DNA of 64,000 nucleotides from Prevotellaceae bacterium (GTDB lineage: Bacteria; Bacteroidota; Bacteroidia; Bacteroidales; UBA932), in assembly GCA_031280885.1 (NCBI GenBank), contig JAITGD010000140.1, forward strand, positions 1,123-65,122, written 5' to 3'. The first letter of the stretch is position 1. Each line of letters begins with the position of its first letter. A program made the translations under genes and the position numbers. Shown here piece by piece: positions 10,655-46,311 of this stretch. The notes under the pieces are model-generated. The model was not told the origin of the DNA, did not search any database, and was given only the letters and a program-made list of their open reading frames with translations.

Positions 10655-10659
10655 TCGCG

Positions 10660-10835
10660 AGAACCAAGAGCCAAGATTTCAAGAGCCAAGACGCTACGCA
10701 GGAAGGCAGAAGGCAGAAGGCAGAAGGCAGAAAGCAGAAAGCAGAAAGCAACACGCCTTCTGCTTTCTGCTTTCTGCTTTCTGCCAGACTGCGTAGCGTC
10801 TTGATTCTTGGTTCTTGCAATCCTGAATCTTCAAG
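10660..10835. repeat. Nested palindromic element (copy E2) with GCAGAAR heptamer arms
   Basis: The sequence reads GAACCAAGAGCCAAGATTTCAAGAGCCAAGACGCTACGCAGG-(AAGGCAG/AAAGCAG)x7-loop-(CTTCTGC/TTTCTGC)x4-CCAGACTGCGTAGCGTCTTGATTCTTGGTTC. It begins 6 nt after the stop of giant gene 1. Confidence 0.9.
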
Positions 10836-10940
10836 AATTAAATAAATACTTACCTTTACGCCGCTTTTTCGACAAAGCATTGACGAGGAAAAATTGATTT
10901 CATAATGAAGTACACGAGATGAAGAATTTAAACTGTAACC

Positions 10941-11555
10941 ATGCTCGCAGACATTTTAAGGGCAAAATCCGATAAAGAACTTGTTACCATGCTGGTATCG
11001 GGCAGCGTTTCGGCTTTTGAAGAGCTGTATGTCAGACACAAAAGCCGGCTGATGTACTTTTGTAAACGCTTTCTCAAGAACGATGATCTGGCAGAAGATC
11101 TTATACAGGACGTCTTTATAAAGATTTGGGACACAAAGGAGAATCTCGATCCCGATTTATCTTTCGCAAAATATCTGCATATCTCGGTTCAAAATCGTAT
11201 ATTAAACATGTTCAGGCAGTTTGATGTACATTCGCGTTTTGCCGATTCTGTTATCAAAGCCGCTGAGCAGGCGAACAATCAAACTGAATGTCAGGTAATA
11301 GACAATGATTATGCTGCTTTGTTAGATATGGCTATCGAAACTTTGTCGCCAAGACAGCGAGAGGTATTTTATCTCAGCCGGACGATGGGGCTGACTTATA
11401 GAGAGATTGCAAAATCGATGCAAATATCTGTGCCAATGGTGCAACAGCACGCATCCATAGCTCTCGAAAAAATACGTAAACACTTGAAACTGCATACCGA
11501 TATAGATTTCAAAACAATAATCGCCTGCTTGATTGCAGGTGAATTTTTTCACTGA
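10941..11555 (+). CDS. RNA polymerase sigma-70 family factor (ECF-type, Bacteroides-expansion-like), with no adjacent anti-sigma gene
   Basis: Region 2 reads EDLIQDVFIKIW. The region 4 helix-turn-helix reads LSPRQREVFYLSRTMGLTYREIAKSMQISVPMVQQHASIALEKIRKHL. The 204-aa length is typical of the family. No FecR-like ORF lies on either side. Confidence 0.85.
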   Translation: MLADILRAKSDKELVTMLVSGSVSAFEELYVRHKSRLMYFCKRFLKNDDLAEDLIQDVFIKIWDTKENLDPDLSFAKYLHISVQNRILNMFRQFDVHSRFADSVIKAAEQANNQTECQVIDNDYAALLDMAIETLSPRQREVFYLSRTMGLTYREIAKSMQISVPMVQQHASIALEKIRKHLKLHTDIDFKTIIACLIAGEFFH

Positions 11556-11746
11556 AAAATCGCGTTTTTCGCAGCACGGAATCGAGGTTTCGGTAGCTCC
11601 TCGCTGCTGTATTTCGTCCGAAAAACCGATAATTTTCGCCTGCCAAGTTCACGAAAACAGGTCTTTTTAATTCTGATTGACAGAATTTTGCAAGAATATC
11701 GAAAAATATCGAAGTAAAATCACATTTGCGATAACAAAATAATACT

Positions 11747-11754
11747 TATCTTTG
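11747..11754 (+). promoter_or_regulatory. -7 box TATCTTTG upstream of giant gene 2
   Basis: It matches TAnnTTTG and lies 44 nt upstream of the ATG at 11798. Confidence 0.4.
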
Positions 11755-11797
11755 CCCCCGAAACGAAATATGATTATGTTCTAACGGGAATTTCTCT

Positions 11798-14700
11798 ATG
11801 ATAAGGGATAACAGTTATTATTTGTGGATGAGTAATCGGGTATTATTCACCACGTTTGATTTTTGTAAAAGCGCGCGGATAGGTAAATTTATACTGTCTG
11901 CATGTTTTGCTTTTATATTAAACACTGTGTCGGCGCAACAAGCATTTACTGCTGTAAATGACACGGTTAAAACAGGGCCTTTGCAGTCTGTTACGGCGGA
12001 TGTTATCAAAAACGATACCATCCCATGCGAAGACTATACATGGCGAGTAATGCTGGCGCCTGCCGGCAAGGGAACCATGAGGAAACAAGGTGATAATCTG
12101 ATTTTTACACCAAGAGTCGATTGTCGAAACGATACTGTGCGCATCTCGTACGGAGTCAAATGCGGCGGCGTCGAAAAATACGCAATGGTGGTGATTATCG
12201 TATCGTCAATGTCCTTGCCTATCAATGTGATAGATCCTTATACGCCTTGTGTAAACGACATGCCATTCAATGTGGATTTTGAGCCGGCGTTGAAGTATGT
12301 GGCTTCCACCACGTCCAATTCAAACAGTATTCCTACCGACGGATTTTCTCTTCCGCTGGTTGGCGACATCAATGGGGACGGAAAGCCTGAAATTGTGGCT
12401 CTTGGACTTGGGCGCACAACCGGCTCTACCGACGGTAGCGGATTGTCGGGACGAGCCTGGTATGTTCATGTTTATAACGGCCAAAACGGTCAAAGACTGT
12501 GGTCTGTAAATCTTGGTACTGAGCCAAGTGGAGGCATATCGAATGTAACAAGTCTGGGACATTCGGGGATTACTTCAAACCTTAGCGAAACCGACGACCA
12601 GTTCCAACTGCGTTTCAATCCGCGACATAACTCTCCGGGACATCTTGCTATTGCCGACTTGGACAGGGACGGAAAAGCCGAAATTGTGGTTGCGGAAGTC
12701 GGTAATATTGGACGAATATATGCGCTGAATCCTACGCTGAATCCAACTACGCGAGCAATTACCGGATTTACAAAGAAATGGACGGGAAATGTTAATGGAA
12801 CAGCTCAATCGTACAAAGCTCCATATACTTCCATCGAAACTGTTAATAACCATGCGCGTTTTGGCTCGGCTGTTCCTTATATCACTGATCTTAATCATGA
12901 TGGACGTCCGGAGGTAATAGTCTATAATAAAATTTACGATGGAATAGACGGGCTTCTGGTCTGCGAGCTTGAGGAGCTGAATGCTTTCAACTATACAACA
13001 TCATCAAGCGCTAACAACACTAATTTCGATAAATATGCTTTTGTAGGCCGTCGTCCCGGAGCCGCTGATAAGGAAGACTTTGTTCCCTGCGTTTCTATTG
13101 CTGATATCGACGGCGACGGAATAATCGACATCATTGCCGGAAGTAAGGTGTATTTGATGAAAAATGAGGTGATTAATGGACGGTCGATGCCAAAACTGAA
13201 AAGCATCATCAAGGGGCCGTCGCAGGTTACAGCGCAGCGCGGAAAAGGCACAGGATCATTTACTTGCCAGGTGAACGACGGTTTTACTTCGGTGGTGGAC
13301 ATCGACCTCGACGGACGATTAGATGTGGTGGTCTTTGCTTCGGCTATGCCAACTTTGAATAACATCACACAATCAGTAATATATGTCTGGGATCCTTTAA
13401 ATAATCCCACCACGCCAAAGGCTGTTACTTATCTTTATACTAATGCAAATTCGGGTACTTTTTCATATCCTTTTGTGGGCGATATAAATGGACGTTTAGA
13501 CGATTGGACTGGTACAAAGAGACTTCCGGAGATTTGCATGGTTGCCGGCAGACTTTGGGCAAATGGAGGATTCGCTAACGGAGCAAACGATACATGGACA
13601 GGGTCGAAACTTGCCGTACATCCAAGTTCTTCGGGTCTTAGCCTTAGCAACAGCAGTTTTAATGCGGATAATACTTCTTCGATACGCGGACATGTGATGG
13701 CTTTTACGTATCATGCAAATCCTGATGGCAGTACGCCTATTCATCAGAGGCTCAAGCTTTCGTGGGCTATGGAGCATAAGGACGAATCAAGCTCGACGGG
13801 TATCACTATGTTCGACTTCGATAACGACGGTATAAGGGAATTAGTATATCGCGACGAGCTGTCGTTGAGGATTATATCGCCTGCCGGAAGCAATTCGATG
13901 GATCTGGTTACTAATTCTTATGTCAGCTCAAGCGGAGCCGACAAGTCGATCATACGTCTGTATCAGCCCGGAGTGCGCTCATATACAGGTTATGAAGCGC
14001 CGGTAATTGCCGACGTTGATCTGGATGGAAGCGCCGATATCATTACCACCGGAACCGACGCGACTTTCAATGCAAGTAATACAAGTTCCGATTCTCGCTC
14101 GCGAGGATATATATATGTGTTTGAACATAAGGGAGGTAAAGATAAGTGGGCTCCATGTCCGCCGGTATGGAATCAAACTATATATTTCCCGCTTCAAATC
14201 AATGAAAATCTTACAGTTCCACCATATCCACAGTCGAGATTAACGCCATATACCAACAGACATGGCGAGACAATATATCCGTATAACGGACATTGGATGC
14301 AGCAACCGATTGTGAGAGAGGGACAAAACTTTATTCCTGTGGTACGTAATCCGAATGCTGTGATTACAAACATGAAGGTCGAAGTCGGTGTGCCTGACGC
14401 CAGCAAAACTCGTGTTACACTGACAATTAAAAACATCGGATCGGCAAGTCTCAACGCCAATACTCCTATAAGTTTCTACACCGGAGGCATGCGCGGAAGC
14501 GGAGGTTACGATATAAATGATACTCAGAATACTCAGTTTATCGTCAAGATGAATCTTGGAGAGGATATTTTTCCGAACGGCCTTGCGGTACGAAGCTATG
14601 ATCTGGCACAAAATCTGAATAATACACTTGTCTGGGCGAGAGTTGTAGATAACAATCGAAATTTTCCCGCCACAGGTTATACCGACTGCGACCTCAGCAA

Positions 14701-17700
14701 TAATGCAGCTTCGGGAGCCGATTGTCCCTGGTTAGTTTATTCGATAACTGCCAGCGACACAATAATCTGTGGATCGGCTGGCGAAGCAATTCTGACCGCC
14801 GTGCCGACTAACACGCCAAACACGCCTTCGTATAAATGGTATCGAAATGATAATGAGATACCCGGCGCAACATCTGCCGTTTATGTTGCACGTCAGCCTG
14901 GTACATATAAATGTTTTATCCGAGAGGACATTTGCAGCTGTTATACGCCCGAAAAAACTATCACACGCATAGAAGCAATTGCTAATGACGACTATGCTGT
15001 TTCGGTGAATGGCGCCACGATTAAAATTCCGATACTCGACAACGATTCCGTGCGCCGATGCGTACCGATGATTCCCTCGATAAGCGTTCTGCCTTCGCAT
15101 GGTAATGCGGTCATTATCAATGATACTCTTGTATATACTCCGCAGTCGGGATACTACGGATACGACACTCTTCGATACGGAATACCGGCTGAGGCATTCG
15201 TATATATCTCGATGACAAAGATTACCGAAGCTCGCAACGACACAATTGTGGCGATAACGGCCGATCCGACAGAAGTTAATATTCTGGCAAACGACGTCAT
15301 CGTTGACGGTTGTACTCCCACTATCAGCATAAGCGTAACACCTTTGCATGGAGGAGCTTACCGATCAGGAAACAAAATTATTTATACCTCGGCGAATCAT
15401 TATACCGGATTTGATAGTTTGACATACAAGATTCAGTGCGGCAACGAGATATCCTACGCCAAAATCATAATAAAAGTCATCCGTTCACGAGTGATATACG
15501 TCAAAGAAACCGCCACCGGCGCGGGCGACGGTTCCTCCTGGCAGGACGCTTATGGCAATCTTGCCGACCCACTGCTTTGGGCTGCAGAACAGCGACTTGG
15601 AATTGCCACCGGACTTGGAGCAGTCAATTCGCAGGTCGATACCATCCGCGAAATATGGGTAGCCGCAGGCACCTATTATCCAATGCACAAGGCCGATACT
15701 CTTAGCGCTGTCAGATATCCTGAAGAACGTTACAAGGCCTTCGTTCTTGTTAATGGAGTAAAAATTTACGGAGGATTTCCCGCAAATGCAAATGACACAG
15801 ACCATAATCTGGTTTCATCGCGACATACAGCCACAGCCACCATCGCGCCAACAGTGCTGAGCGGCGATATTGGAACATCTGGTTACGATGACGATAACTC
15901 TTATAATGTGGTAATTGCAGTAAACATTCCAAATAATACAGAAACTGTGCTGGATGGTTTTATTATTTCCGATGCAAAAACTACAAACGCGCCAAGCAGC
16001 CCGCTTGTAAATGGTCATGCAGTGGATTGTATATCTGCAATATACTGTTACAATGCTTCGCCGGTGCTTGCTAATCTGAAAGTAAGCGGAAACAGCGGAT
16101 ACTATGGAGGCGGAATATATGCCCGCAATTCTTCACCGCAGATTTTCAATACTTTAATCAGCGGAAACAGTGCATCTTCCGGATGTGGATCTCTTTACTT
16201 TGCAGGATCTTCTCCGATATTAACAAATGTAACTGTATCAGGAAACTACGGCTTGCAAGGAGGAGTGCGTGCAAGCACAAACTCTAACGTTACGCTGAAT
16301 AACTGTATAGTCTGGGGAAATCATTCCACTCATACGAATGTCGCAAGTACTCCGCAGATTCACAGTGTCTTTATAGAAGGCAACAGCACTGTAAATATCT
16401 CACATTCATTGATACAGCACAGCGGAGGTAGCAGTAGCTGGAACACAGCTGCCGGTAACGATCTCGGTGGAAATATAGATACAAACCCTTATTTTATAGC
16501 TGAAATTCCGGCGGTTTCGGCGCCAAATAACAATGGCAACTACCGCATCGACTACAACTCGCCGGCGCTCAATTCAGGTAAAAACGAGCACTTTCCACAC
16601 AATTTGCAGAATATTGCATTGCTACGAAACTGCTACGACATTAATGGGGATTTCCGTCTGGTTGATAACAACATAGACATGGGCGCTTACGAGCATCAGG
16701 CATGGACGGTTCCTCCAACGCCGCGTATATTTTATGTAAAAGAAGGAGGCTCGGGCAATAAAACCGGCGATACATGGCAGGACGCATATCCAAATTTGGC
16801 CGATCCGGTTTTATGGGCATATCAGCAGCGCGAAGGCACGCTACCGGTGGTTTATCCGGGCGACACAATAGCGCAAATTTGGGTTGCAGAAGGCACGTAT
16901 TATCCAATGTATATGGCTGGTACGGGCAGTTCCGACCGCGACAAAGCCTTTGTGCTTTCCGAAGGATTAAAGATCTACGGAGGTTTTCCGCAAGGCGCAT
17001 CCGACACGCAGCACACAAGTCTCGATTCGCGTTTTACCGGCGTTTGCAAGGGAAGTCCATGCCTGTCGGAAACTATTCTTTCGGGCGATTTAGGCAAAAA
17101 CGACGCTTCGACTAACATCAAGACCGACAATGTGTATCACCTATTTATCGCAAATAATGTTACCGACAACACCGTAATCGACGGATTTACTCTGACAGGC
17201 GGACAGGCCGACGGTTCAGGAGCAATCAATCTGTCGGTCAATACAGTAAGTAGCACAGTGCCGAGAAACATGGGCGGAGCAATTTACAACGTCAAAGCTT
17301 CGCCAAGGTATTCCAACCTGCGTATCGTCGATAATTATGCCGACAGATCCGGAGGAGGAGTATATTGCGACAACGCTTCATCGGCGCCCTCGTTTATTGC
17401 CTCGACCCTCAGCGGAAACAGAGCTAAGAGAGACGGCGGAGCAATCAGCCTGAACGGTGGCGATATACGTATGATAAACAGCGCGATCACAGGCAATTGT
17501 GCCGACAGCATCGGAGGAGCCATGAACGTAATTGCCGGCAAATATTTGCTGCTGAACTCCACAATCGCCGGCAATCATGCCGACAGCACAGGCGGAGGTA
17601 TTTACATGCGTGGAAACATCATTGCAAACGTCAAAAACAGCATAATTTGGGGCAATAACACCAAATTCGGAAGAAACAGCAATATATATCGCGACACTGT

Positions 17701-20700
17701 GCAGACCGTTTATAACAATGTATCTGTTGATTATCAATATTCTATCGTTGGAGGTGCAAGATACGGACATAATCTTGGCGCATGGAATCCGTTCTTTGGA
17801 ACCGACGGAGGCAATAATTTAGATATGAATCCGCAGTTTGAAGACTATATCACCTCGCTGCAAAATGGCTGGCAAGCAACTTCTTCGGGCGATTATAGAC
17901 TGCAATACGGCAGTTCTGCTCTTGGCGCAGCCAGCGAAACCTTATACATGAACTCATTCAATCCGCCTTTGGCTAACATGCTGAATGAAGTGGATTTGGG
18001 AGGAAATACTCGCGTTTTTGGAGTTATGGACCTTGGCGCATACGAAAATCAAACGATTCCTCCTCCCACTTCTTCGATTATGTATGTGAAAACCAACGGA
18101 AACGGCGACGGATCATCCTGGGATAACGCCTATCCGAATCTTGCCGACCCGCTGTCGTGGGCAAACATGCAACGTAAAGGAGCTTTCGGGCCGGTGGCAA
18201 TAAACGATACTATTCGCGAAATCTGGGTGGCAGCCGGCACATACAAACCCATGCATCGAGCAGCGCTTCACAGAGATACGCTGAATCAAGCAACAACGGA
18301 TCGCGACAAAGCTTTTGTGCTTGTGGATGGTGTGAAAATATATGGCGGATTTCCGGCAAATGCAAGTACTGCAGCCAATTCTGCTCTCGAATCGCGTTTT
18401 CCAGCGGGATGCTCCTCTCGCGGATGTCTTGCTCCGACAATTCTTTCCGGCGATCTTGGCCTTGCAGATATTCCCGGAAACATGACAGCAAACAAAGCCG
18501 ATAACGCCTATCACGTTGTTATTGCGGCTGGTACATACACAAACGCTCTTCTCGACGGCTTCATCATCGAAGGAGGAAATGCCAACGATAACGCCGGTAA
18601 CTTCGTAGTAGTGAATAAAATATTTGTCGATAGCGACAAAGGCGGAGGTCTCTACTGTGTCGATTCCACTGCTACATCTTCGCCGCAGTTCAAAAATCTT
18701 GTTTTTCGCGGCAACATCGCACGAAAATATGGCGGCGGTATTTACATCGGCAAAAGTTCGCCAATTATCACACATTCACTTGTTTCGGGAAATATCGCAA
18801 CAGGTTCTACCGGACAGGGAATTGGCGGCGGAATGACCGTATTCAATGGTAATGCTTCGCTTACCGACGTGAGAATCAGTGGAAACCAAGCGCTGACAGG
18901 CGCCGGCGCGGCTCTTATTTCTGCATCAAATCCAAGATTTAATAATGTAACCGTCAGCGGAAACCGCGCACAGAACGCATCCGGAGGGATTTACATAAAC
19001 GGTACAGCTCATCCGACATTCAATAACTCCATTATCTGGGGCAATGTTGCTCCGCTTGCGCCGGAAGTACAGATAGTTAGCGCTTCTGCAATATTCAATC
19101 ATAGTCTCGTAAGCGGCTCGGGAGGAAGTTCAAATTGGACTTTAAGCTCGGCCACCGACGGCGGCGGCAATCTCGATGCTGACCCTCTGTTTACTGCACG
19201 TGTCAATCCTTCGCAGAGCGGCTGGCAGCCAACCGAAGCAGGCGATTACACTCTGAAACATTGCAGTCCGGCTATCGATGCCGGTAACAATGCGGCGCAT
19301 CCGAATATTAACAGCGTCGATCTGGACGGAAATGCGCGCATATCGGGCGGAAAAATCGACATGGGAGCTTACGAAAAAGCCTTAGTTACAGGACTTACTA
19401 ACGGAATTTTCTACGTAAAACAGACTTGCAGAGGCACGGGCAACGGCTCTTCGTGGAATAATGCTTATGGCAATCTCGCCGATCCGCTATTATGGGCTGA
19501 TCATCAGCATAAAGGAACTTTCGGGCCGGTAGCTGCCGGAGATACCATCCGGCAAATCTGGATTGCAGAAGGAACATACATCCCTCGTCATAAAATCGCT
19601 GATAATGACGAGAATGGCAATCCTACTACTGATCGCGATAAAGCCTTCGTATTGGTTAAAGGAGTGAAAATATATGGAGGATTTCCCGACAATGCCAATA
19701 ATACACAGCATACTACACTCGAATCGCGCGGTTCCGACATGGCTCACTTCGCCACCACTACGCTCAGCGGCGACCTCAATGGCGACGATCTTGCGGGAAA
19801 TTTCACTCAATATAAAACCGATAATGCGTATCACGTAATTGTGGGCGCCGACATTCCCGCCGACGGAAAAACTGTGATCGACGGTTTTGTGATAAGCGAG
19901 GGTCAGGCCGACGGAAATAACTACAAAGTAGAAGTGAACAACGAGCAATTTCTGCGGACGGAAGGCGGCGGAATCATCATCGTAAATGCCTCGCCTTTAT
20001 TTTCGTGCAACATCGTCGAAAGCAATTTTGCAGAATCGGGCGGAGCGGGTATATCTGCCAAACAGTCTTTGCCGCAGATAGATAAGCTCACTTTCCGTAG
20101 CAATCATTCCGAAGGCGACGGCGGCGGAATTCTTATCAAGGATAATTCTCGTCCCGAGTTTACTAACGTGAATATTTCGGGAAACCGCGCCGCAAACACC
20201 GGCGGCGGAATGATGATAGACGCTTCGGAACCTGTTTTTATTGACGCTCTTGTGAACGGAAACCTTGCGAATGAAGGCGGCGGTATTGCGATAAAAAATA
20301 ATTGTCAGCCCGACTTTGTCAATGTAACCGTCGGAGGAAATCTTGCACAGAATCGCGGCGGTGGCCTAAGTTTCGACATTTCGTCTCCGACCTTCAAAAA
20401 CAGCATAATCTGGGGTAATACGGCCAGCTTGAACTCTGCAAGCAACAGCCTGTTTATGAGCGGAGGCGCTAATCCTGAATACATTCGCAGTCTTGTGCAA
20501 GGCAGCGGAGGTAGCAGCGCCTGGCTTGCCTCCTTCGGAATAGACGGCGGAAATAATATCGACGTCAATCCTATGTTCAATGATTTGATAATCAGTGGAC
20601 ATCCCTCTGTAGCGGGCGATTATCGTCTTAAAAACGGCAGTCCGGCAATTAATCGCGGCGACAGCGTATTATACAAGCAGGCAATGTCGGCAAGTTTTCT

Positions 20701-23700
20701 GTACGGAACACAATTGCTGCAAGATATGAAAGATCTCGACGGTACTCAACGTGTACTGAATGGAAATATTGATATCGGAGCTTATGAAAAAGCTCTGGAA
20801 ATCAAACCAAACAACGGAGTATTTTATGTCAAACAGAATTTCCACGGCAATGCCGACGGCTCTTCATGGAACGATGCTTACGGAAATTTGGGCGACCCTC
20901 TGCTTTGGGCGGCTCAGCAACGCGACGGCTCGCTGGGAATTGTTGATCAGAACGATACAATCCGCGAAATCTGGGTGGCCGAAGGAAAATATCGGCCTAT
21001 GCACTTCGCCGGTCAAGCCGCCGCCGGTCAGCAAATCAATAACGACAAGGCTTTTGTTCTGGTGAACGGTGTGAAACTTTATGGCGGATTTCCCGACAAT
21101 GCCAACGATGTTGTGCATATAAATATCGAATCGCGTTTCCTTGGAAATTGCACAGGAAGAGCCTGTCTCATGCCGACAATTTTGTCGGGCGACCTTCTGG
21201 ACGACGACGATTCAACCGATTTTGCTATGACCGTAAACAAAGCCGACAACGCTGCGCATGTGATTGTAGCTGCTGATATTGACGACGATAAACAAACCGT
21301 AATCGACGGATTTATCGTAACAGAAGGATACGCCGACGGCGTCAGCTACATCGAATTAAATTCAGGAACAAAAATATACCGAGAAGACGGCGGCGGTATT
21401 TATCAGATAAATGCTTCGCCGGTGTATTCTAACCTTCGGATAATCAGCAATCGTGCTGCCGGAAAAGGCGGAGGCCTTTTTGTTAATGGTTCCGGATCGC
21501 GCTTCGAGCGTGTGGAAATAAGCGGCAACAAAGCGAAGTCAGGTGGCGGTTTACTATCCGAAGGAGATAGTATGATGCTTATAAACTGCGCTATGACAGG
21601 TAATTACTCCGAAACTGACGGCGGAGCTGTAAATGCCGCAGACAGCAAACTCGCGCTGATAAACACAAGCGTTGCAGGTAATTATGCCGACGGCGACGGA
21701 GGTGGATTGTCCTTACATCGTGGATTGCCAGAATACGCCATAACGAACAGCATAATCTGGGGAAACAAAGCGCAAAGCAATCCGACAACAAACAATATCC
21801 ACACATCCAAAGAAATAGGATACAGCTACAGCCTCGTCGAAGATGCTTTTCCAAACGGACAGTGGGACGCAAATCTCGGTACGAATCTCGTCGGAAATAT
21901 TGATCAGGATCCCACATTCGTCAATTACATCCTCCCAAGTGCGGCGACTGTACCCGTTCCCACAGGCAATTACCGTCTGATGCACGGAAGTCCGGCAATC
22001 AATGCTGCTGATACATCTTTGTATAAGAACGCTTTTGCTCCTCCTTTGACCTCCATGTACGACGAAGTGGATTTGGAAGGTATGCCTCGTCTTGCTGCTT
22101 CCGTTCTGGATATGGGCGCGCTCGAAGCCGCCACGCCAATACCTGCCACAACTCGCAGAATGTTTGTTAAAAACGGAAATCGAGGCACGGGAAGCGGCGA
22201 TTCCTGGCTAAATGCTTACGGAAATCTCGCCGACCCGCTGTTGTGGGCTTATATGCAGCGAAATAGAACTGCCGGACGTGTTGCCGCAACCGATACGATC
22301 TGCGAAATCTGGGTGGCCGAAGGAACCTATTATCCGCTTCACAAGGCCGCAAGCCACAACGGTTCCGGCCTTCCTTCCGGCAACGAACACAAGACTTTCA
22401 CCCTGGTGGACGGAGTGAAAATCTATGGCGGATTCCCCGACACAGCAAACGATAACAGACATACAACGCTGACAACTCGCGATGTAAAGCAACACAAAAC
22501 AAGATTGAACGGAGCAATCGGACAGATTAGCGGCGGCGCCGACAGCGTATATCACGTAGTTGTAGCCTCGAATCTCAAAAATTGGAACGGCGAATCGCCA
22601 ACGCTCGACGGTTTTATCATCACCGGAGGAAATGCCAAAGGCGACGGAGCTTCATTCGTTACCATCAAAGGAAACATAATTTACGACAATGTGGGAGGCG
22701 GATTGCTGGCTATTAATTCTGATATCGAATGGAATCTCGTAGAGATAAGTAGAAACGAATCGAAGGAAACCGGAGGAGGAATTTATGCCAAAAATAGCTC
22801 TATTTCAATCTCTTCAGGCTCGGTGGACGAAAATACTGCTGCGCGTCAGAGCGGCGACGGTGGCGGTGGAATTTATTCCGACAATTCGACTCTTATTCTC
22901 AACAAAGTCTTGGTCAGCAGAAACTCCGGCGGCACTGCTCTCGGAGGCGGAATTCACACTTACGACGGTACTTTCCGCGCAATCGGAACGGAAATCACAG
23001 GAAATAAAGCATCCGGAGGCGGCGGGCTTTTCCTCGACGGAACTAAGACCGATCTTATCAATGTGCTGATTGCTGGCAATGCGACAGGCACGACCGGCAC
23101 AGGCGGAGGAATCCTGTCGGCCGACAACAATGTCCGCATGACAAACGTAACCATCGGAGGGAACTCATCATCCGCCGGCTCGGCAATTTACGCCAATCAA
23201 TCAAGCTCGGTAACTGTCAATAACAGCATAGTTTGGGGAAACAAGGCGCCGACTTTTTCGCCTACGGGAACCTTCTCTTTTGAAAGTTCGCTCGTCGAAG
23301 GTTCTGGTGGAAGTACTTCTTGGACAGGCATTGCCGGAGCCGACGCCGGAAATAATACCGACGGAAATCCGCTCTTTGTTACTTGGACAAATCCAGCCAC
23401 TACAAACGGGCAGCCGGTATCGACCGACGATTATCGACTTCTGCCGGGAAGTCCGGTTGTAAATACCGGCGATAGCGCTCTCTACAAGCAGGCTTTCAAT
23501 CCTCCCTTGCAAAACATGCAGGGACAGCTCGACCTGGATGCTTTGCCGCGCGTTATCGGTTCGACTCTCGACCGCGGAGCATACGAAGCAACTACTCTGA
23601 TGCGTGCTGTAAACGACTTGGCCACAACCGATCCGCGCACTTCGATAGCTATCGACGTGCTGGCTAACGACGTGCTACTTGCCTGCAACAGAAGCAATCT

Positions 23701-25657
23701 CGCTGCAATAGCTCCATTAAGCGCTCTTTCGGCTCAAAACGGAATTTTGACGCTAAACCCCGACAGTACGATAAACTACACGCCGCCAAGCGGTTTCACA
23801 GGTATCGATTATTTCGACTACTATGTAAAATGCAACGCCGATAGTAGCGCCGCTCGTGTTACTATCGCCGTAATCAAGCCAAAAGCATGGAATTATATAG
23901 CCTGTCTCGACGCCGAAGTTACGCTTGCAGTAGATAATATTGGCGGTGTAAAATATTGGTGGTACAATGCTTTCGGAGCTTTCCTTGCGCAGGATACTTC
24001 CTCGTACACAGTAATAAAGAACAGCAATTCTGTCCAAAGTTTTCTGGTCGAACCGCACTTTCAGGGACTGACATTCCCGCGTTACAGAATCGATTTGACC
24101 CTGAGCGACGACTGCGGAAACTCGCCTTCTGCCTGTGCTACTGATGGTACTTTGCTTTTCCGCGAAGATTTCGGAGGTAACGAAAGTGATCCCGACTATT
24201 CAAACTCTCCGCTGCCACACGGAACCACTGAATATCAGCTTGTACAGGGATTGCCATCCACAGAAAATCAATATTGCCTCGCAAAAAAATCCGCAGGCAA
24301 TCAAGCCTGGTATTCCTACGACGACCACACATTTGCAGGCGATACAACGAAAGGTTACATGATGGTGATAAATGCCGGAAGCGAGAAAAAACTTCTGTAT
24401 CATACCGATTTAGATGGTCTCTGCATCGGTTCGAAGCTGAACGTCTCGGCCTGGATAGGCAACCTGACTAAGGCAAACCTCGCCCCGCAAGAGCATCCGA
24501 ATCTGCGCTTTGTGCTTACTGACCCCGCTAACGGAGACGTGCTGGCCGAATATATCACCGGTGAAATCCAACCGGAACAAACTGCCGATTGGAAACTCTT
24601 CGGATTTGCCTACACTTCCACCGGCGCTGCGGTGCAACTATCTATATACAACGCCGCTACCGGTAACGGTGATAACGACTTGGCGATAGACGACGTCGAA
24701 ATTCGCCTTTGTGTTCCGCCGGTAACGATGGCGCAGCCAGCCAACGATTTTGAAGAACTCTGCGAAGGCTCAAGTTTCTCAATCGATGGTTCTTATATCG
24801 ATAATAATACCTTCGGAACGGATTTGATTATGAGATTGGAATACAATGCCTCCGGACAAATTTACGAGCCTTCGCAATGGACTACCGTGAGCGGTACGGA
24901 ATTGACCTCCAGCGCCGGAAGCATCGATACGGTTTACTCATTCGCAGCCTCGCCGTCAAACGCCGGATATTACCGAGTGGTAGTGGCAAATCCCTTGTTA
25001 ATTGGACTGTATAGGTGTCGCTCGATGTCCCGAATCGTTTATCTTGACGTAACTAAGGCTCACGTACCGCCGGACGTCAGAATATATCTCAAGCCTGAGG
25101 CTGGCATGACGCTGAACCTCAGCGCGTATATCGATAGTCTCGACCGCCCGTACAGCCTGAAATGGACGGCCGGAAGGTCTGTGCCTTTCGTGCCGGGAAC
25201 AGAAAATACTACCGGAACTGTCGAGTTTAGCTCTCCTAACGGATATTTTTCTACTTACATATATACCTGCGACATCACCGACTCGATCTGCGGAACTCGA
25301 CAGGCAAAGGCTTATGTACGTATCCTGCAAAAAAATATCGACACCCTTACTGTCAGAATTTGCAAAGATTTACCCGAAACCGACCGGATTAATCTAAACC
25401 AAATTCTCGGACTTGAATCGCTTGGCGCTCAATGGACTTGGCTGACTAACTCAAATAATGTGTTTTCAGACAATATTACCATAATACCCGCCGGAAATCG
25501 GCACGAGGGTGCTTATCTCTTTAACGCATTGCAGGCCTTCGCTCAAGCCGGAACAGCTTATTATCACCTAAATAATCCAAACGAAAAAAAATTCGAGTTT
25601 GAGTATGCAAATCCCGCAGGAACAATGAAAAAGCGAGTCAAATTGATAGTCTATTGA
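11798..25657 (+). CDS. Giant secreted surface protein 2 (4,619 aa). It has an N-terminal cadherin/FG-GAP propeller block paralogous to gene 1, six tandem parallel-beta-helix modules, a cadherin-like domain, a jelly-roll-like domain and the shared C-terminal module.
   Basis: This is a single ORF of 13,860 nt. The signal-like N-terminus is KFILSACFAFILNTVSAQQ. Long near-identical stretches are shared with gene 1, for example DGFSLPLVGDINGDGKPEI.ALGLG, GRAWYVH, DQFQLR..PRHNSPGHLAIADLD.DGKAEIVV and HQRLKLSWAMEH...S.TGITMFDFDNDG..ELVYRDELSLR.ISPAG. The beta-helix modules carry GGG(I/L)Y and SGN.A repeats and end in D.GAYE. Confidence 0.9.
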   Translation: MIRDNSYYLWMSNRVLFTTFDFCKSARIGKFILSACFAFILNTVSAQQAFTAVNDTVKTGPLQSVTADVIKNDTIPCEDYTWRVMLAPAGKGTMRKQGDNLIFTPRVDCRNDTVRISYGVKCGGVEKYAMVVIIVSSMSLPINVIDPYTPCVNDMPFNVDFEPALKYVASTTSNSNSIPTDGFSLPLVGDINGDGKPEIVALGLGRTTGSTDGSGLSGRAWYVHVYNGQNGQRLWSVNLGTEPSGGISNVTSLGHSGITSNLSETDDQFQLRFNPRHNSPGHLAIADLDRDGKAEIVVAEVGNIGRIYALNPTLNPTTRAITGFTKKWTGNVNGTAQSYKAPYTSIETVNNHARFGSAVPYITDLNHDGRPEVIVYNKIYDGIDGLLVCELEELNAFNYTTSSSANNTNFDKYAFVGRRPGAADKEDFVPCVSIADIDGDGIIDIIAGSKVYLMKNEVINGRSMPKLKSIIKGPSQVTAQRGKGTGSFTCQVNDGFTSVVDIDLDGRLDVVVFASAMPTLNNITQSVIYVWDPLNNPTTPKAVTYLYTNANSGTFSYPFVGDINGRLDDWTGTKRLPEICMVAGRLWANGGFANGANDTWTGSKLAVHPSSSGLSLSNSSFNADNTSSIRGHVMAFTYHANPDGSTPIHQRLKLSWAMEHKDESSSTGITMFDFDNDGIRELVYRDELSLRIISPAGSNSMDLVTNSYVSSSGADKSIIRLYQPGVRSYTGYEAPVIADVDLDGSADIITTGTDATFNASNTSSDSRSRGYIYVFEHKGGKDKWAPCPPVWNQTIYFPLQINENLTVPPYPQSRLTPYTNRHGETIYPYNGHWMQQPIVREGQNFIPVVRNPNAVITNMKVEVGVPDASKTRVTLTIKNIGSASLNANTPISFYTGGMRGSGGYDINDTQNTQFIVKMNLGEDIFPNGLAVRSYDLAQNLNNTLVWARVVDNNRNFPATGYTDCDLSNNAASGADCPWLVYSITASDTIICGSAGEAILTAVPTNTPNTPSYKWYRNDNEIPGATSAVYVARQPGTYKCFIREDICSCYTPEKTITRIEAIANDDYAVSVNGATIKIPILDNDSVRRCVPMIPSISVLPSHGNAVIINDTLVYTPQSGYYGYDTLRYGIPAEAFVYISMTKITEARNDTIVAITADPTEVNILANDVIVDGCTPTISISVTPLHGGAYRSGNKIIYTSANHYTGFDSLTYKIQCGNEISYAKIIIKVIRSRVIYVKETATGAGDGSSWQDAYGNLADPLLWAAEQRLGIATGLGAVNSQVDTIREIWVAAGTYYPMHKADTLSAVRYPEERYKAFVLVNGVKIYGGFPANANDTDHNLVSSRHTATATIAPTVLSGDIGTSGYDDDNSYNVVIAVNIPNNTETVLDGFIISDAKTTNAPSSPLVNGHAVDCISAIYCYNASPVLANLKVSGNSGYYGGGIYARNSSPQIFNTLISGNSASSGCGSLYFAGSSPILTNVTVSGNYGLQGGVRASTNSNVTLNNCIVWGNHSTHTNVASTPQIHSVFIEGNSTVNISHSLIQHSGGSSSWNTAAGNDLGGNIDTNPYFIAEIPAVSAPNNNGNYRIDYNSPALNSGKNEHFPHNLQNIALLRNCYDINGDFRLVDNNIDMGAYEHQAWTVPPTPRIFYVKEGGSGNKTGDTWQDAYPNLADPVLWAYQQREGTLPVVYPGDTIAQIWVAEGTYYPMYMAGTGSSDRDKAFVLSEGLKIYGGFPQGASDTQHTSLDSRFTGVCKGSPCLSETILSGDLGKNDASTNIKTDNVYHLFIANNVTDNTVIDGFTLTGGQADGSGAINLSVNTVSSTVPRNMGGAIYNVKASPRYSNLRIVDNYADRSGGGVYCDNASSAPSFIASTLSGNRAKRDGGAISLNGGDIRMINSAITGNCADSIGGAMNVIAGKYLLLNSTIAGNHADSTGGGIYMRGNIIANVKNSIIWGNNTKFGRNSNIYRDTVQTVYNNVSVDYQYSIVGGARYGHNLGAWNPFFGTDGGNNLDMNPQFEDYITSLQNGWQATSSGDYRLQYGSSALGAASETLYMNSFNPPLANMLNEVDLGGNTRVFGVMDLGAYENQTIPPPTSSIMYVKTNGNGDGSSWDNAYPNLADPLSWANMQRKGAFGPVAINDTIREIWVAAGTYKPMHRAALHRDTLNQATTDRDKAFVLVDGVKIYGGFPANASTAANSALESRFPAGCSSRGCLAPTILSGDLGLADIPGNMTANKADNAYHVVIAAGTYTNALLDGFIIEGGNANDNAGNFVVVNKIFVDSDKGGGLYCVDSTATSSPQFKNLVFRGNIARKYGGGIYIGKSSPIITHSLVSGNIATGSTGQGIGGGMTVFNGNASLTDVRISGNQALTGAGAALISASNPRFNNVTVSGNRAQNASGGIYINGTAHPTFNNSIIWGNVAPLAPEVQIVSASAIFNHSLVSGSGGSSNWTLSSATDGGGNLDADPLFTARVNPSQSGWQPTEAGDYTLKHCSPAIDAGNNAAHPNINSVDLDGNARISGGKIDMGAYEKALVTGLTNGIFYVKQTCRGTGNGSSWNNAYGNLADPLLWADHQHKGTFGPVAAGDTIRQIWIAEGTYIPRHKIADNDENGNPTTDRDKAFVLVKGVKIYGGFPDNANNTQHTTLESRGSDMAHFATTTLSGDLNGDDLAGNFTQYKTDNAYHVIVGADIPADGKTVIDGFVISEGQADGNNYKVEVNNEQFLRTEGGGIIIVNASPLFSCNIVESNFAESGGAGISAKQSLPQIDKLTFRSNHSEGDGGGILIKDNSRPEFTNVNISGNRAANTGGGMMIDASEPVFIDALVNGNLANEGGGIAIKNNCQPDFVNVTVGGNLAQNRGGGLSFDISSPTFKNSIIWGNTASLNSASNSLFMSGGANPEYIRSLVQGSGGSSAWLASFGIDGGNNIDVNPMFNDLIISGHPSVAGDYRLKNGSPAINRGDSVLYKQAMSASFLYGTQLLQDMKDLDGTQRVLNGNIDIGAYEKALEIKPNNGVFYVKQNFHGNADGSSWNDAYGNLGDPLLWAAQQRDGSLGIVDQNDTIREIWVAEGKYRPMHFAGQAAAGQQINNDKAFVLVNGVKLYGGFPDNANDVVHINIESRFLGNCTGRACLMPTILSGDLLDDDDSTDFAMTVNKADNAAHVIVAADIDDDKQTVIDGFIVTEGYADGVSYIELNSGTKIYREDGGGIYQINASPVYSNLRIISNRAAGKGGGLFVNGSGSRFERVEISGNKAKSGGGLLSEGDSMMLINCAMTGNYSETDGGAVNAADSKLALINTSVAGNYADGDGGGLSLHRGLPEYAITNSIIWGNKAQSNPTTNNIHTSKEIGYSYSLVEDAFPNGQWDANLGTNLVGNIDQDPTFVNYILPSAATVPVPTGNYRLMHGSPAINAADTSLYKNAFAPPLTSMYDEVDLEGMPRLAASVLDMGALEAATPIPATTRRMFVKNGNRGTGSGDSWLNAYGNLADPLLWAYMQRNRTAGRVAATDTICEIWVAEGTYYPLHKAASHNGSGLPSGNEHKTFTLVDGVKIYGGFPDTANDNRHTTLTTRDVKQHKTRLNGAIGQISGGADSVYHVVVASNLKNWNGESPTLDGFIITGGNAKGDGASFVTIKGNIIYDNVGGGLLAINSDIEWNLVEISRNESKETGGGIYAKNSSISISSGSVDENTAARQSGDGGGGIYSDNSTLILNKVLVSRNSGGTALGGGIHTYDGTFRAIGTEITGNKASGGGGLFLDGTKTDLINVLIAGNATGTTGTGGGILSADNNVRMTNVTIGGNSSSAGSAIYANQSSSVTVNNSIVWGNKAPTFSPTGTFSFESSLVEGSGGSTSWTGIAGADAGNNTDGNPLFVTWTNPATTNGQPVSTDDYRLLPGSPVVNTGDSALYKQAFNPPLQNMQGQLDLDALPRVIGSTLDRGAYEATTLMRAVNDLATTDPRTSIAIDVLANDVLLACNRSNLAAIAPLSALSAQNGILTLNPDSTINYTPPSGFTGIDYFDYYVKCNADSSAARVTIAVIKPKAWNYIACLDAEVTLAVDNIGGVKYWWYNAFGAFLAQDTSSYTVIKNSNSVQSFLVEPHFQGLTFPRYRIDLTLSDDCGNSPSACATDGTLLFREDFGGNESDPDYSNSPLPHGTTEYQLVQGLPSTENQYCLAKKSAGNQAWYSYDDHTFAGDTTKGYMMVINAGSEKKLLYHTDLDGLCIGSKLNVSAWIGNLTKANLAPQEHPNLRFVLTDPANGDVLAEYITGEIQPEQTADWKLFGFAYTSTGAAVQLSIYNAATGNGDNDLAIDDVEIRLCVPPVTMAQPANDFEELCEGSSFSIDGSYIDNNTFGTDLIMRLEYNASGQIYEPSQWTTVSGTELTSSAGSIDTVYSFAASPSNAGYYRVVVANPLLIGLYRCRSMSRIVYLDVTKAHVPPDVRIYLKPEAGMTLNLSAYIDSLDRPYSLKWTAGRSVPFVPGTENTTGTVEFSSPNGYFSTYIYTCDITDSICGTRQAKAYVRILQKNIDTLTVRICKDLPETDRINLNQILGLESLGAQWTWLTNSNNVFSDNITIIPAGNRHEGAYLFNALQAFAQAGTAYYHLNNPNEKKFEFEYANPAGTMKKRVKLIVY
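15485..23590 (+). repeat. Six tandem intragenic modules (about 1.24-1.44 kb, roughly 410-480 aa each) inside giant gene 2
   Basis: Modules start near 15485, 16724, 18073, 19402, 20816 and 22153. Each opens with (I/V)(F/Y)YVK....G.GSSW..AY.NLADPL.WA..QR......DTI.EIWVA.GTY.P and KAFVLV.GVKIYGGFP. Each then has PbH1-like GGG.Y/SGN turns and closes with D(L/I)GAYE near 16690, 18045, 19375, 20788, 22125 and 23588. Confidence 0.85.
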
Positions 25658-34975: not shown

Positions 34976-36043
34976 TCAAAAGGCGTATCCCAGCGTTATT
35001 CTGAAGGTATTGTCTAAGGGATTTTTGACGCTTGAGGTGCTTATAAGATACGAGGCGTCAAGTTGTAAAGCGCCGTACATCAGTCCTATTCCGAAGGTAA
35101 AATATCTGTATCCGGGATATTCTTTGCTGTTGTGGTATCCGCTTCGAGCCAGCAAAGTACGCGCGAAACAGTATTCGGCTCCGAATCCCCAGCAGAAATC
35201 GCCGGCCGATTTGCCAAAAGATTTTCCGATGGCTTCAAAGACAGAATAATTGCTGTCGTATCGTGTTGGCACAAGGGATTTATTGAGATCAAGCGAAAGG
35301 GAGAGGGTATTTCGTTTGTCGAAATGCACTTTCCATGTTCCGCCGATGCGGAAATTCATTGGCAAGAAATATTCGGCGCCTTCGGCTTTTTTCACTTTTG
35401 TTCCTAAGTTCGAGAGGTTTGTACCGAAAGATAGTTCGGTATTCAGTTTTCCCACAGGTAATTCGGGCATGGTGTAGAAAAAACTGACGTCGCCGGCAAA
35501 AGCGGAAGCAGGTCTCAAAGCGCCTGTTCCAGAGGCATGTTCTACTTTGATTCCGCTGGCGTATCTCAGGGCAATTCCTCCCGAAAAACGGCGTCCGAGG
35601 CGGTGCGAATATGACACATCGATGGCGTATTCGTTGGAAGATATTGTTGCCAGGAAGGTATTATCTAAGCTTCTAAGGTCGATATGTCCGATATTTAGAT
35701 ATCGCACTGAGGCTCCGACTGCGCTTCGCTCGCCGAATTTGGCATATCCGGCGAAGTATCCCATGTTCATACCTCTGGTTATGTCGCTCAGCCAGGGCAT
35801 GTACGATAGAGAGGCTTTGTAGTTAGCCTCGGCAAAAATATATTTCGACGGGTTCCAATGTTGCGAGTTGGCGTCGGGCGAGCTTGCCACACCGACGTCT
35901 CCCATGCCTGAAGCGCGTGCTTCGGGGGAAATATCAAGGATAAATAGGGCTTTGTAGGAGTCCTGTGCACGGAGGTCAGAGAATCCGAGAGCAAGGCAAA
36001 ACATTACGAATAACAAGCGATTAACGCGGTCAGAGGTAGTCAT
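34976..36043 (-). CDS. porV: Type IX secretion system outer-membrane channel protein, PorV(LptO)/PorQ family (best fit PorV)
   Basis: The motif LDISPEARASGMGDVGVASSPDANSQHWNPSKY is followed by a beta-barrel pattern ending in the aromatic terminus GYAF. I chose the internal Met (MTTSDRVNRLLFVMFCLALGF signal peptide) because a TACCTTTG box lies at 36077-36084 inside the longer track ORF (34976-36154). Confidence 0.65.
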   Translation of the reverse strand: MTTSDRVNRLLFVMFCLALGFSDLRAQDSYKALFILDISPEARASGMGDVGVASSPDANSQHWNPSKYIFAEANYKASLSYMPWLSDITRGMNMGYFAGYAKFGERSAVGASVRYLNIGHIDLRSLDNTFLATISSNEYAIDVSYSHRLGRRFSGGIALRYASGIKVEHASGTGALRPASAFAGDVSFFYTMPELPVGKLNTELSFGTNLSNLGTKVKKAEGAEYFLPMNFRIGGTWKVHFDKRNTLSLSLDLNKSLVPTRYDSNYSVFEAIGKSFGKSAGDFCWGFGAEYCFARTLLARSGYHNSKEYPGYRYFTFGIGLMYGALQLDASYLISTSSVKNPLDNTFRITLGYAF

Positions 36044-36076
36044 ATTTCTATGTTTTATTTTTTTAAATTCAAGGTT

Positions 36077-36084
36077 CAAAGGTA
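36077..36084 (-). promoter_or_regulatory. -7 box TACCTTTG for porV
   Basis: The minus strand reads TACCTTTG about 34 nt upstream of the Met at 36043. Confidence 0.5.
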
Positions 36085-36138
36085 TGAATAAATTGTGTAA
36101 GCGGAGAATCCACTGTTTTGCGAACATAAAAAAATATT

Positions 36139-36146
36139 TAATTTTG
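36139..36146 (+). promoter_or_regulatory. -7 box TAATTTTG for the amidase-mltG pair
   Basis: It matches TAnnTTTG and lies 74 nt upstream of 36220. Confidence 0.35.
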
Positions 36147-36219
36147 CGCCGCATATCGCGTTCGGTATGTTTAACATCAAGGCACGAGATTTATTCGAGC
36201 GGGATGACATAAATTTTAT

Positions 36220-43922: not shown

Positions 43923-44438
43923 TTATTTTTCGAGTCTCAGTCCCAGCGAAGCGACGCCTTTCAGCAGATCGTCGCGCATGCCGTGTTTTATTTTCACCAT
44001 ATAATTTCCTTTCACAGGGAAGCGGATTTTAGTACGGAATGGTACGCGGATTTCTGCAAATCGCGAAATACTTCCTCCTCCGCCTTTTCGTCCGCCGCTT
44101 TCGTCGAAAAGCTCATACTGCACCGTATCCACCGAAAAAGCGCCATTTGGCGCCTCCGTAGTAACGAATAGATACAGATTGGAATATGGATAATCGTCGC
44201 GGCTACGCAAGTCGAACAGCAAGTCGAACCATGTCAGGGTATCGTTTACGGGCATAGTGAAAATCAGGGCTTCATCGACGCGCCATTCGCAATTATTCAC
44301 CGTTTGCGATTGCTCCCACACTCTGGCCTCGTCGCTGCACGACGAAGCGAGCATAGCCAGCGCTACGGCCAGAATCAGCCTTGCGCCGCCGCGCTTGCTC
44401 TCAGTTATTTTTTGGGTTTTCCGGACGATGTTTAGCAT
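43923..44438 (-). CDS. gldH: Gliding-motility/T9SS-associated lipoprotein GldH
   Basis: The lipobox is LAMLASSC. Other motifs are DDYPYSNLYLFV, the glycine run LFDESGGRKGGGGS and GNYMVKIKHGMRDDLLKGVASLGLRLEK. It sits directly downstream of a PSP1 gene, as expected for gldH. I chose the internal Met at 44438 (track ORF 43923-44648). Confidence 0.75.
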   Translation of the reverse strand: MLNIVRKTQKITESKRGGARLILAVALAMLASSCSDEARVWEQSQTVNNCEWRVDEALIFTMPVNDTLTWFDLLFDLRSRDDYPYSNLYLFVTTEAPNGAFSVDTVQYELFDESGGRKGGGGSISRFAEIRVPFRTKIRFPVKGNYMVKIKHGMRDDLLKGVASLGLRLEK

Positions 44439-45799: not shown

Positions 45800-46170
45800 T
45801 TTTGGACTTTTGGACTTTTGGACTTTTGGACTTTTTTTGGACTTTTGGAGTTTTGGACTTTTGGACTTTTGGAGTTTTGGACTTTTGGACTTTTGGACTT
45901 TTGGACTTTTGGACTTTTGGATTATCAGAGGTGCATTAAAATTTACCATACGTGTTTTGTTGGAAAACCTCATTTTCACCTCATTTCAATTCGATTGGCA
46001 TAATGAGTTGTTTGTGGGAACTTAAATATCCAACAGTCCAACAGTCCAACAGTCCAACAGTCCAACAGTCCAACAGTCCAACAGTCCAACAGTCCAACAG
46101 TCCAACAGTCCAACAGTCCAACAGTCCAACAGTCCAACAGTCCAAAAAAAGTCCAAAGAAAGTCCAAAGA
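45800..46170. repeat. Large imperfect palindrome made of 8-mer tandem arrays: (TTTTGGAC)x15, a 107-nt spacer, then (CCAACAGT)x14 plus degenerate GTCCAAAGAAA units
   Basis: I counted the units directly. The left array is 45800-45922 and the right array 46030-46141 plus a tail to about 46170. The units are reverse complements at 7 of 8 positions (ACTTTTGG versus ACTGTTGG). Confidence 0.9.
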
Positions 46171-46183
46171 AAGAAATTTTTTA

Positions 46184-46191
46184 TACCTTTG
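46184..46191 (+). promoter_or_regulatory. -7 box TACCTTTG for tRNA-Pro
   Basis: This is a perfect match 12 nt upstream of tRNA position 1. Confidence 0.55.
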
Positions 46192-46202
46192 CGCTTCGAA
46201 AT

Positions 46203-46276
46203 CGGGGTGTGGCGCAGTTGGCTAGCGCGCTACGTTCGGGACGTAGAGGCCGTGTGTTCGAGTCACATCACCCCGA
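46203..46276 (+). tRNA. tRNA-Pro (anticodon CGG)
   Basis: I folded the cloverleaf by hand. The acceptor is CGGGGTG/CACCCCG, the D stem GCGC/GCGC, the anticodon stem CTACG/CGTAG with loop TTCGGGA, and the T stem GTGTG/CACAT with loop TTCGAGT. The discriminator is A and CCA is not encoded. Confidence 0.9.
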
Positions 46277-46311
46277 CAAATCAGGCAGATGCCTCAAACT
46301 TATATTCGTTT

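Follow-up and report, generated by a model that had tools for sequence, protein, structure and literature searches.

The question raised by the locus described here concerns the role of a conserved protein tail. The DNA analyzed, hereafter the window (the whole stretch of 64,000 nucleotides; Prevotellaceae bacterium, assembly GCA_031280885.1, contig JAITGD010000140.1, positions 1,123 to 65,122 of the forward strand), harbors two genes coding for giant exported proteins, gene 1 (2990..10654, + strand) and gene 2 (11798..25657, + strand), whose last ~200 amino acids (aa) resemble each other. An earlier note on this DNA had interpreted the shared tail as a candidate new sorting, anchoring or partner-binding domain, specific to this giant-protein family, in a genome encoding a type IX secretion system (T9SS). 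Is this tail a new domain, and what might it be for? Our analysis revealed that it belongs to a large family of terminal modules, for which a two-domain structure is predicted. The balance of probability tilts slightly, on the sequence data, towards the idea that it represents a lineage-specific new class of T9SS sorting/anchoring module, in which an immunoglobulin (Ig) domain would be followed by a C-terminal domain (CTD).

A terminal module shared by two giant proteins, and its family

When the last 299 aa of both proteins were compared by BLASTP, a single collinear alignment was obtained (201 columns, with 34% identity and 54% positives; E = 3e-25), which covers nucleotides (nt) ~10004-10651 in gene 1 and ~25028-25654 in gene 2. 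The collinearity described in the earlier note was thus confirmed, its coordinates being right within about 30 nt, and all the motifs that it had listed were found in both translations. In the first of the two predicted domains (D1), these motifs are, in gene 2 and gene 1, respectively, PDVRIYLKP and PDVRLHLCP, LNLSAYIDSL and IFLSGYLDTL, FVPGTENTTG and FVPGTDASTG, and KAYVRIL and KVYIKVL; in the second domain (D2), they are VRICK and VVVCH, LNQILGLE in both proteins, and the termini RVKLIVY and MVLIVTNKLMP. The cysteine (Cys) core is also present in both tails. A hidden Markov model (HMM) of the module matched residues 2348-2559 of the open frame of gene 1 (211 bits) and the last 213 residues of gene 2 (177 bits), and a six-frame search of the 64-kb window revealed exactly two copies of it, both placed at the ends of the giants. 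Even at E <= 10, Pfam and NCBIfam contained no model matching either tail. The shared tail is therefore real, but it is not the sole part that the two proteins have in common: they are 50.6% identical over their N-terminal ~1130 aa (residues 17-1139 in gene 1, 39-1148 in gene 2), and the middle parts differ. Hence, the two genes are paralogues sharing both ends. The N-terminal shared part spans positions 2990..6400 and 11798..15240 of the window.

An exhaustive HMMER profile search of 1.84 billion cluster representatives (clusters at 50% identity) showed that the module is a real family, which includes 455 clusters at E <= 1e-3, 348 at E <= 1e-10 and 139 at E <= 1e-30. The position of the module and the number of its internal copies were obtained by a local re-scoring of the best 150 of the 455 matches. 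Within this set, 147 proteins carry the full module, whose end is separated from the C-terminus by 0-15 residues (median 4); one C-terminal fragment can be added to them (148 of 150), and separate HMMs for D1 and D2 did not detect any significant internal copy. The expected location at the extreme C-terminus is in agreement with these data. The possibility that we were dealing with an internal repeat devoid of positional bias was rejected, since the only non-terminal matches, those of P0019 and P0088, belong to proteins of another kind, built from a related 67-71-aa repeat.

Other searches added few relatives. A word-indexed protein search retrieved two of them with a two-sequence profile and 23 short fragments with 36 sequences. 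A scan of genome contigs detected only two loci, both from Prevotellaceae metagenome-assembled genomes (MAGs), with open reading frames (ORFs) of 1674 and 1609 aa ending in the module; no module match was found in the metagenome contigs scanned with alignment A3, nor in the viral contigs scanned. In one locus (L001) an ORF of more than 1600 aa ending in the module is broken by a scaffold gap, and a JGI (Joint Genome Institute) metagenome contig (L010) carries two tandem giants (3..8438 and 9670..17580), both ending in the module, in the same arrangement as in the window. Every source-named member is either a 'hypothetical protein' or bears the name of a passenger repeat (e.g., DUF11), and comes from a 'MAG: Prevotellaceae bacterium'. 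The module is absent from Pfam (2025 copy) and from NCBIfam 20.0, and the searchable literature contained no 'type D', novel CTD or comparable report. The domain family thus appears to be undescribed so far, and it is specific to a lineage of uncultured Prevotellaceae-like bacteria.

Which proteins, then, carry this module? A census of 29 N-terminally complete, full-length members (Pfam and NCBIfam) revealed a variety of passengers: Big_9 in 20 of them, Ig_7 ('Ig-like domain CHU_C associated') in 17, FG-GAP in 11, DUF11 in seven and GEVED in six, as well as, more rarely, SprB repeats (three), IgGFc_binding (three), PKD_5 (two), choice-of-anchor L (one) and choice-of-anchor Q (one). Outside these 29 proteins, faint precomputed matches to beta-helices and a combination of DUF8202 with PKD_5 were observed. 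The size of complete members ranges from ~700 aa (P0057 and P0118) up to 4709 aa. The idea that the module is specific to the giant-protein family of the window must therefore be abandoned, as it caps many unrelated architectures; what stands of the original interpretation is a new terminal module, with its family, its position and its novelty. Indeed, the passengers vary and the cap formed by the module stays constant, which is the behavior expected from a sorting tag.

Predicted structure, cysteines and origin of the two domains

The 209-aa module of gene 2 was modelled with AlphaFold2 using a 36-sequence alignment, and a confident model was obtained (predicted local distance difference test, pLDDT, 92.8; predicted template modelling score, pTM, 0.87). 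According to this model, the module consists of two tightly packed Ig/cadherin-like beta-sandwiches, D1 (~85 aa, residues ~14-100) and D2 (~110 aa, residues 101-209). The modelled strands of D1 include residues 17-22, 27-30, 42-48, 64-67, 76-85 and 89-99, and they place D1 of gene 2 (PPDVRIYL...AKAYVRIL) at 25067..25327 (+ strand). D2 shows four short helices, one of which corresponds to LNQILGLE, and its last strand closes on the final residue of the protein; when modelled alone, it retained high scores (pLDDT 92.1, pTM 0.84). In gene 2, D2 (TLTVRIC...LNQILGLE...KRVKLIVY) spans 25328..25654 (+ strand) and is a two-Cys variant, as judged from the models and the Cys pattern. On the basis of the alignments, and with the boundary transferred from the gene 2 model, D1 of gene 1 (PDVR...KVYIKVL, a predicted Ig-like beta-sandwich) was assigned to 10046..10297 (+ strand), and D2 of gene 1 (DTVVVC...LNQILGLE...MVLIVTNKLMP), which the Cys pattern identifies as a four-Cys variant, to 10298..10651 (+ strand).

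The comparison of the whole model with the Protein Data Bank (PDB) by Foldseek returned generic tandem cadherin domains, all with a TM score <= 0.30, a weak similarity that depends on the different inter-domain geometry. D2 alone gave weak cadherin/Ig matches (best E = 9e-4, all TM <= 0.45), and searches of the PDB sequences with the module and D2 profiles did not provide any meaningful match.

The distribution of Cys residues was analyzed in 143 modules. Two of them, C88 and C112, are conserved in 98% of the modules. Two further ones, located at the beginning of D1 and close to the end of D2, covary: both are present in 99 of the 143 modules and both are absent in 37, with seven exceptions. 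In gene 1 the covarying residues correspond to positions 10109..10111 and 10598..10600 of the window, and they have no counterpart in gene 2. This pattern suggests that D1 might be stapled to D2 by disulfide bridges, with two alternative arrangements; the covariation hints at the pairs C22-C197 and C88-C112. The high pTM and the Cys pattern point together to a fixed inter-domain geometry.

As to the origin of the two domains, some hints come from P0019 and P0088, which consist almost wholly of 20 or 11 near-identical Cys repeats of 67-71 aa, each matching the module HMM with 11-15 bits (consensus tLtvCEG..L...L.G...GGTWS...YTYTv...C...t.tvtV); no single Pfam repeat model matches these repeats cleanly. 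With hhalign, the first ~35 positions of D2 (strand-Cys, helix, GGxW) matched the initial half of the repeat at a probability of 92%, and the last ~37 positions of D1 matched its second half more weakly (56%). No significant similarity was detected between D1 and D2 (hhalign probability 1.4%). Judging from these sequence relationships, a Cys-containing adhesin repeat is the likely evolutionary source of both D1 and D2, the latter having been enlarged by an insertion; from the shared pattern, an internal duplication giving rise to the two domains is plausible. The difference in organization is anyway clear: the repeats are internal and arranged in tandem, whereas the module is single-copy and terminal, with an insertion of ~45 aa in D2.

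Known T9SS C-terminal domains and the possible role of the module

According to PMC10202324, the type A CTD (PF18962/TIGR04183) is a seven-stranded Ig-like domain, PorV-dependent and cleaved, beside which the cargo bears another Ig-like domain; the type B CTD (PF13585/TIGR04131) shows five motifs in the last 100 aa, requires more than 200 aa for secretion and is uncleaved, and the gene for its cognate PorP/SprF is usually clustered with the substrate gene; the type C CTD (cl41395) is that of Flavobacterium johnsoniae ChiA. A further trait of type A is the cleavage by PorU and the attachment to anionic lipopolysaccharide. The earlier note had not recognized any type A or type B hallmark in the two tails. 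In agreement with it, no type A or type B CTD model matched either tail at E <= 10, and the HMMs of type A and type B (PF18962, TIGR04183, PF13585 and TIGR04131) did not match any of the 36 modules at the same threshold. Real CTD sequences were fetched from the PDB with made-up consensus probes, which were used solely for this purpose. When profiles were compared with an alignment of five real type A CTDs (8glj_D, 5uyt_A, 8glk_D, 7pzj_A and 9whd_A), hhalign gave a probability of 0.9% for D2 (alignment A6) and 0.6% for the whole module (A4); the value obtained with the type B CTD of GhpA (PDB 9flp, residues 5817-5887) was 0.07%. The PDB sequence set does contain type A CTDs (8glj and 8glk) and a type B-bearing protein (9flp), and no T9SS CTD entry is present among the 50 best Foldseek matches of D2. 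The structural comparison that had been proposed for this module thus yielded two beta-sandwiches that neither Foldseek nor profile-profile alignment links to type A or type B CTDs. As judged from the HMM and profile comparisons with those two classes, the module is outside both of them; it is neither an ordinary type A nor an ordinary type B CTD.

The module nonetheless shares several features with the known classes. Like type A CTDs, it occupies the extreme C-terminus of Sec-exported surface proteins of Bacteroidota with variable passengers; in the model its last beta-sandwich ends with the final strand of the protein and directly follows an Ig-like domain; and no dedicated shuttle gene lies alongside, type A relying on the generic PorV. 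Unlike them, D2 has ~110 aa and four short helices instead of ~70-80 all-beta residues, the PNP and G.Y columns, invariant in the five real CTDs, are missing from the module consensus, and no flexible linker is visible before D1, which makes a PorU-type cleavage doubtful. With type B cargo (SprB, or GhpA in PDB 9flp), the module proteins share the very large size and the adhesin-like composition, rich in Ig_7 and SprB-type repeats, as well as a functional unit of about 200 aa that is probably retained and uncleaved. In contrast to type B, the stretches shared by the probe and GhpA (PN..TPN.D, NRWG, W.GT and TYFY) have no counterpart in the module consensus, and no PorP/SprF gene is adjacent to the module gene in nine neighborhoods, although this feature is not absolute, given the existence of orphan type B substrates. 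Lastly, type C sets a precedent for the acceptance by the T9SS of CTDs outside type A and type B (PMC10202324), even though it is a ~100-aa region known from few Flavobacterium proteins.

Concerning the secretion machinery, the presence in the window of PorV (34976..36154, - strand; NF033710, 327 bits against a cutoff of 250), the T9SS outer-membrane shuttle, and of a GldH-family lipoprotein (43923..44648, - strand; TIGR03511, 102 bits against a cutoff of 78.7) was confirmed, and PorV indicates that this genome has a T9SS. The true start of GldH is probably downstream of the TTG codon, since the model matches residues 97-241. The mechanical ORF start of PorV is probably too far upstream as well (392 aa, against the 355 aa of the database copy P0179). 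The nearest named relatives of PorV (53-59% identity) come from 'Prevotellaceae bacterium' MAGs, the same label as that of the named module proteins. The expected co-occurrence of the module with the T9SS is seen in the window and, through this label, suggested for the relatives.

Export signals were read from the translations by a simple heuristic. In this way, signal peptides of the signal peptidase I (SPI) type were recognized in 36 of the 150 proteins, including those of both window genes, and many of them end in A-Q; members of the family are thus expected to reach the periplasm. Since no type A or type B model (Por_Secre_tail, CHU_C, TIGR04183 or TIGR04131) matches any of the 29 full-length members, no other T9SS signal is recognizable in them, and the module proteins show no recognizable lipoprotein or transmembrane anchor either. 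Adhesin-domain proteins of 700-4700 aa need a route across the outer membrane, and in Bacteroidota the route of such large adhesin-type proteins is the T9SS (PMC10202324). The broad features of T9SS cargo are therefore found together here: a Sec signal peptide (by the heuristic), a terminal conserved domain in 148 of 150 proteins, and PorV and GldH in the window.

From these elements we infer the T9SS dependence of the module, its shuttle partner and its fate, cleaved or retained. The giant proteins would be exported by Sec via the N-terminal SPI signal peptide; the terminal module would then act as the outer-membrane translocation signal, recognized at the T9SS either by PorV or by a shared shuttle whose gene lies elsewhere in the genome, and it would probably be retained after translocation as a cell-proximal anchor. 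In this scheme, D2 might be the counterpart of the CTD proper, and D1 that of the Ig-like domain found beside it in known T9SS cargo. Since no shuttle gene is found alongside, the shuttle might be either generic (PorV) or orphan and shared. Orphan type B substrates of F. johnsoniae share one distant shuttle (PMC10202324 and PMC12618676). That D1 directly follows the preceding domain suggests retention rather than cleavage. Given the Sec export, the T9SS-bearing lineage, the lack of any other signal or anchor and the obligatory terminal rigid unit, a sorting/anchoring device is the most economical explanation. In its fullest form, this proposal foresees a fourth class of T9SS CTD, a ~205-aa disulfide-stapled Ig-plus-CTD unit derived from an adhesin repeat and read by PorV or another shuttle, which would export and anchor hundreds of giant adhesins in an uncultured Prevotellaceae-like lineage; we regard this full version as evenly balanced between being right and being wrong.

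Some findings weigh against such a proposal. D2 has no detectable sequence or profile likeness to type A or type B CTDs; the co-occurrence with the T9SS consists of one window and of shared taxonomic labels; neither a direct computational link between the module and the T9SS nor a candidate partner gene emerged; and no PorP/SprF-like or other conserved gene was found in the neighborhoods, i.e., six loci with readable downstream sequence and three with the upstream side only. The descent from an ordinary adhesin repeat makes a purely structural or adhesive end-cap possible. Moreover, gene 1 and its orthologue P0004 share 69% identity in the module and 73% over the whole protein, which speaks against any extra constraint on the module; the notion that it is more conserved than its passenger was accordingly rejected.

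Different explanations can be proposed for these data. That the likeness of the tails is due to chance, or simply to a recent duplication of neighboring paralogues, without wider meaning, is hardly conceivable: the paralogy of genes 1 and 2 speaks for it, but the pairwise E-value, the strict terminal position and the occurrence of the same module, within a 455-cluster family, on hundreds of independent proteins with unrelated passengers refute it. An end-cap that finishes the stalk or binds a ligand or partner, the export signal lying elsewhere, is a more serious candidate, even if an unlikely one in our opinion. Such a function would fit two Ig/cadherin-like sandwiches whose best PDB neighbors are cadherin ectodomains, the likeness of the D2 N-terminus and, more weakly, of the D1 C-terminus to the tandem adhesin repeat, and a module that evolves no more slowly than its passenger. 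A ligand-binding tip, however, would not be expected to be the one constant element across FG-GAP propellers, beta-helices and PKD/Ig arrays, nor to lack internal or duplicated copies throughout; furthermore, once their signal peptide is cleaved, these proteins, having no other anchor, would be left with no recognizable way across, or onto, the outer membrane.

Two additional explanations maintain a link with the T9SS, and both of them seem to us improbable. The module might be an extremely divergent type B CTD (CHU_C/TIGR04131), read by a PorP/SprF-family shuttle encoded elsewhere, an idea in agreement with passengers typical of type B cargo (Ig_7 in 17 and SprB repeats in three of the 29 proteins), with a length of ~205 aa that fits the requirement for type B secretion, and with the orphan type B CTDs of F. 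johnsoniae mentioned above. It is contradicted by PF13585 and TIGR04131, which match none of the 36 modules (E <= 10) and none of the 29 full-length proteins, by the result obtained with the GhpA CTD and the lack of the type B stretches, and by the absence of PorP/SprF from every neighborhood examined, six of which include the downstream side. Alternatively, the module might act after secretion, anchoring the protein or binding a partner (lipopolysaccharide, LPS, an outer-membrane protein or a neighboring subunit), the T9SS signal being short, cryptic and located in or beside it. CTDs that combine a secretion signal with a targeting signal, as stated in PMC12618676, and the LPS-dependent anchoring mechanism reported for T9SS substrates of Cytophaga hutchinsonii (PMC12860637) are in line with this possibility, and a rigid Cys-stapled two-domain unit would suit docking; against it, no partner gene is conserved nearby, and sequence alone cannot part this explanation from the sorting/anchoring module that we favor.

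Gene surroundings and implications

Gene 1 (ORF list) codes for 2554 aa and gene 2 for 4619 aa, or for 4609 aa with the start placed at 11828, where the database copy P0003 has it. The bodies of both giants contain FG-GAP/VCBS, Big_9 and cadherin-like domains, with choice-of-anchor Q in gene 2 (Pfam and NCBIfam). According to the heuristic reading, the Sec/SPI signal peptide of gene 1 would be encoded by 2990..3067 (+ strand; MRKFSFVGIRIAIAVLFTAGFISAQA immediately before QP) and that of gene 2 would lie within the N-terminal region 11798..11935 (+ strand; ending in KFILSACFAFILNTVSA immediately before QQ). The motif AQ..F.AvDD...TGPL..v...V..ND, which comes right after the signal peptide, also opens many other family members. 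The family alignment (A5) also reveals, in many members, another stretch of conservation, ~450 aa long, which immediately precedes the module and is formed by an EDFG..DHT..G.D...DDIE domain and then by an Ig domain ending in GYYR..V....CRA.S. This Ig domain is present in gene 2 (~24760..25030, a region with no Pfam match), and a cadherin-like domain is found at that place in gene 1.

The two giants are separated by a gene coding for a Bacteroidetes-type extracytoplasmic function (ECF) sigma-70 factor (10941..11555, + strand; TIGR02985, 143 bits against a cutoff of 126; Sigma70_r2 and r4_2), which may regulate both of them; no obvious anti-sigma gene lies beside it. An ECF sigma gene is likewise present in another locus (L006), where it precedes the giant by about 5.5 kb. 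As for the six loci with a readable downstream side, the neighboring genes there code for an ECF sigma factor, LptG, an aminotransferase, an FGGY kinase, a superoxide dismutase and an OMP_b-brl_2 protein, the last being a weak match on the opposite strand, unrelated to PorP/SprF. The PorV neighborhood of a relative (L011) was uninformative on a module partner, and a look-up of P0005 returned no record. Near that PorV (L011 16649..19208), three tandem paralogues with PNGase_F-II_N and Porph_ging domains are placed next to a radical-SAM/SPASM gene, and a lanthipeptide cluster lies upstream of them.

Other observations concern the rest of the window. The apparently gene-free 2.9 kb upstream of gene 1 turned out to be an artefact of ORFs running off the window; a minus-strand gene is located there (1..2709), which codes for a GH127 six-hairpin glycosidase ~82% identical to PDB 6ex6, runs off the window start and continues in frame into a domain like 8oi4/9nwf. 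As this enzyme is far closer to a solved protein (~82%) than PorV is to its named relatives (53-59%), either a horizontal transfer or a strong conservation is possible. A 348-aa ORF (45952..46998, + strand) is probably not a gene, since it overlaps a tRNA-Pro(CGG) (46203..46277, + strand) and has no NCBIfam match.

What would a new sorting module imply? At present, T9SS cargo are predicted from the models of type A, type B and, rarely, type C CTDs. If the module is a sorting signal, a whole group of very large surface proteins from this lineage escapes these predictors, and the catalogues of secreted proteins and adhesins of such uncultured Bacteroidales, presumably from the gut, have gaps. 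A new CTD class, if true, would also show what the SprA/Sov translocon and its shuttles recognize, and it would provide a new tag for surface display. Even if it should turn out to be only an end-cap, the module, which lacks any annotation and comprises at least 455 clusters (50% identity), merits an entry in the domain databases.

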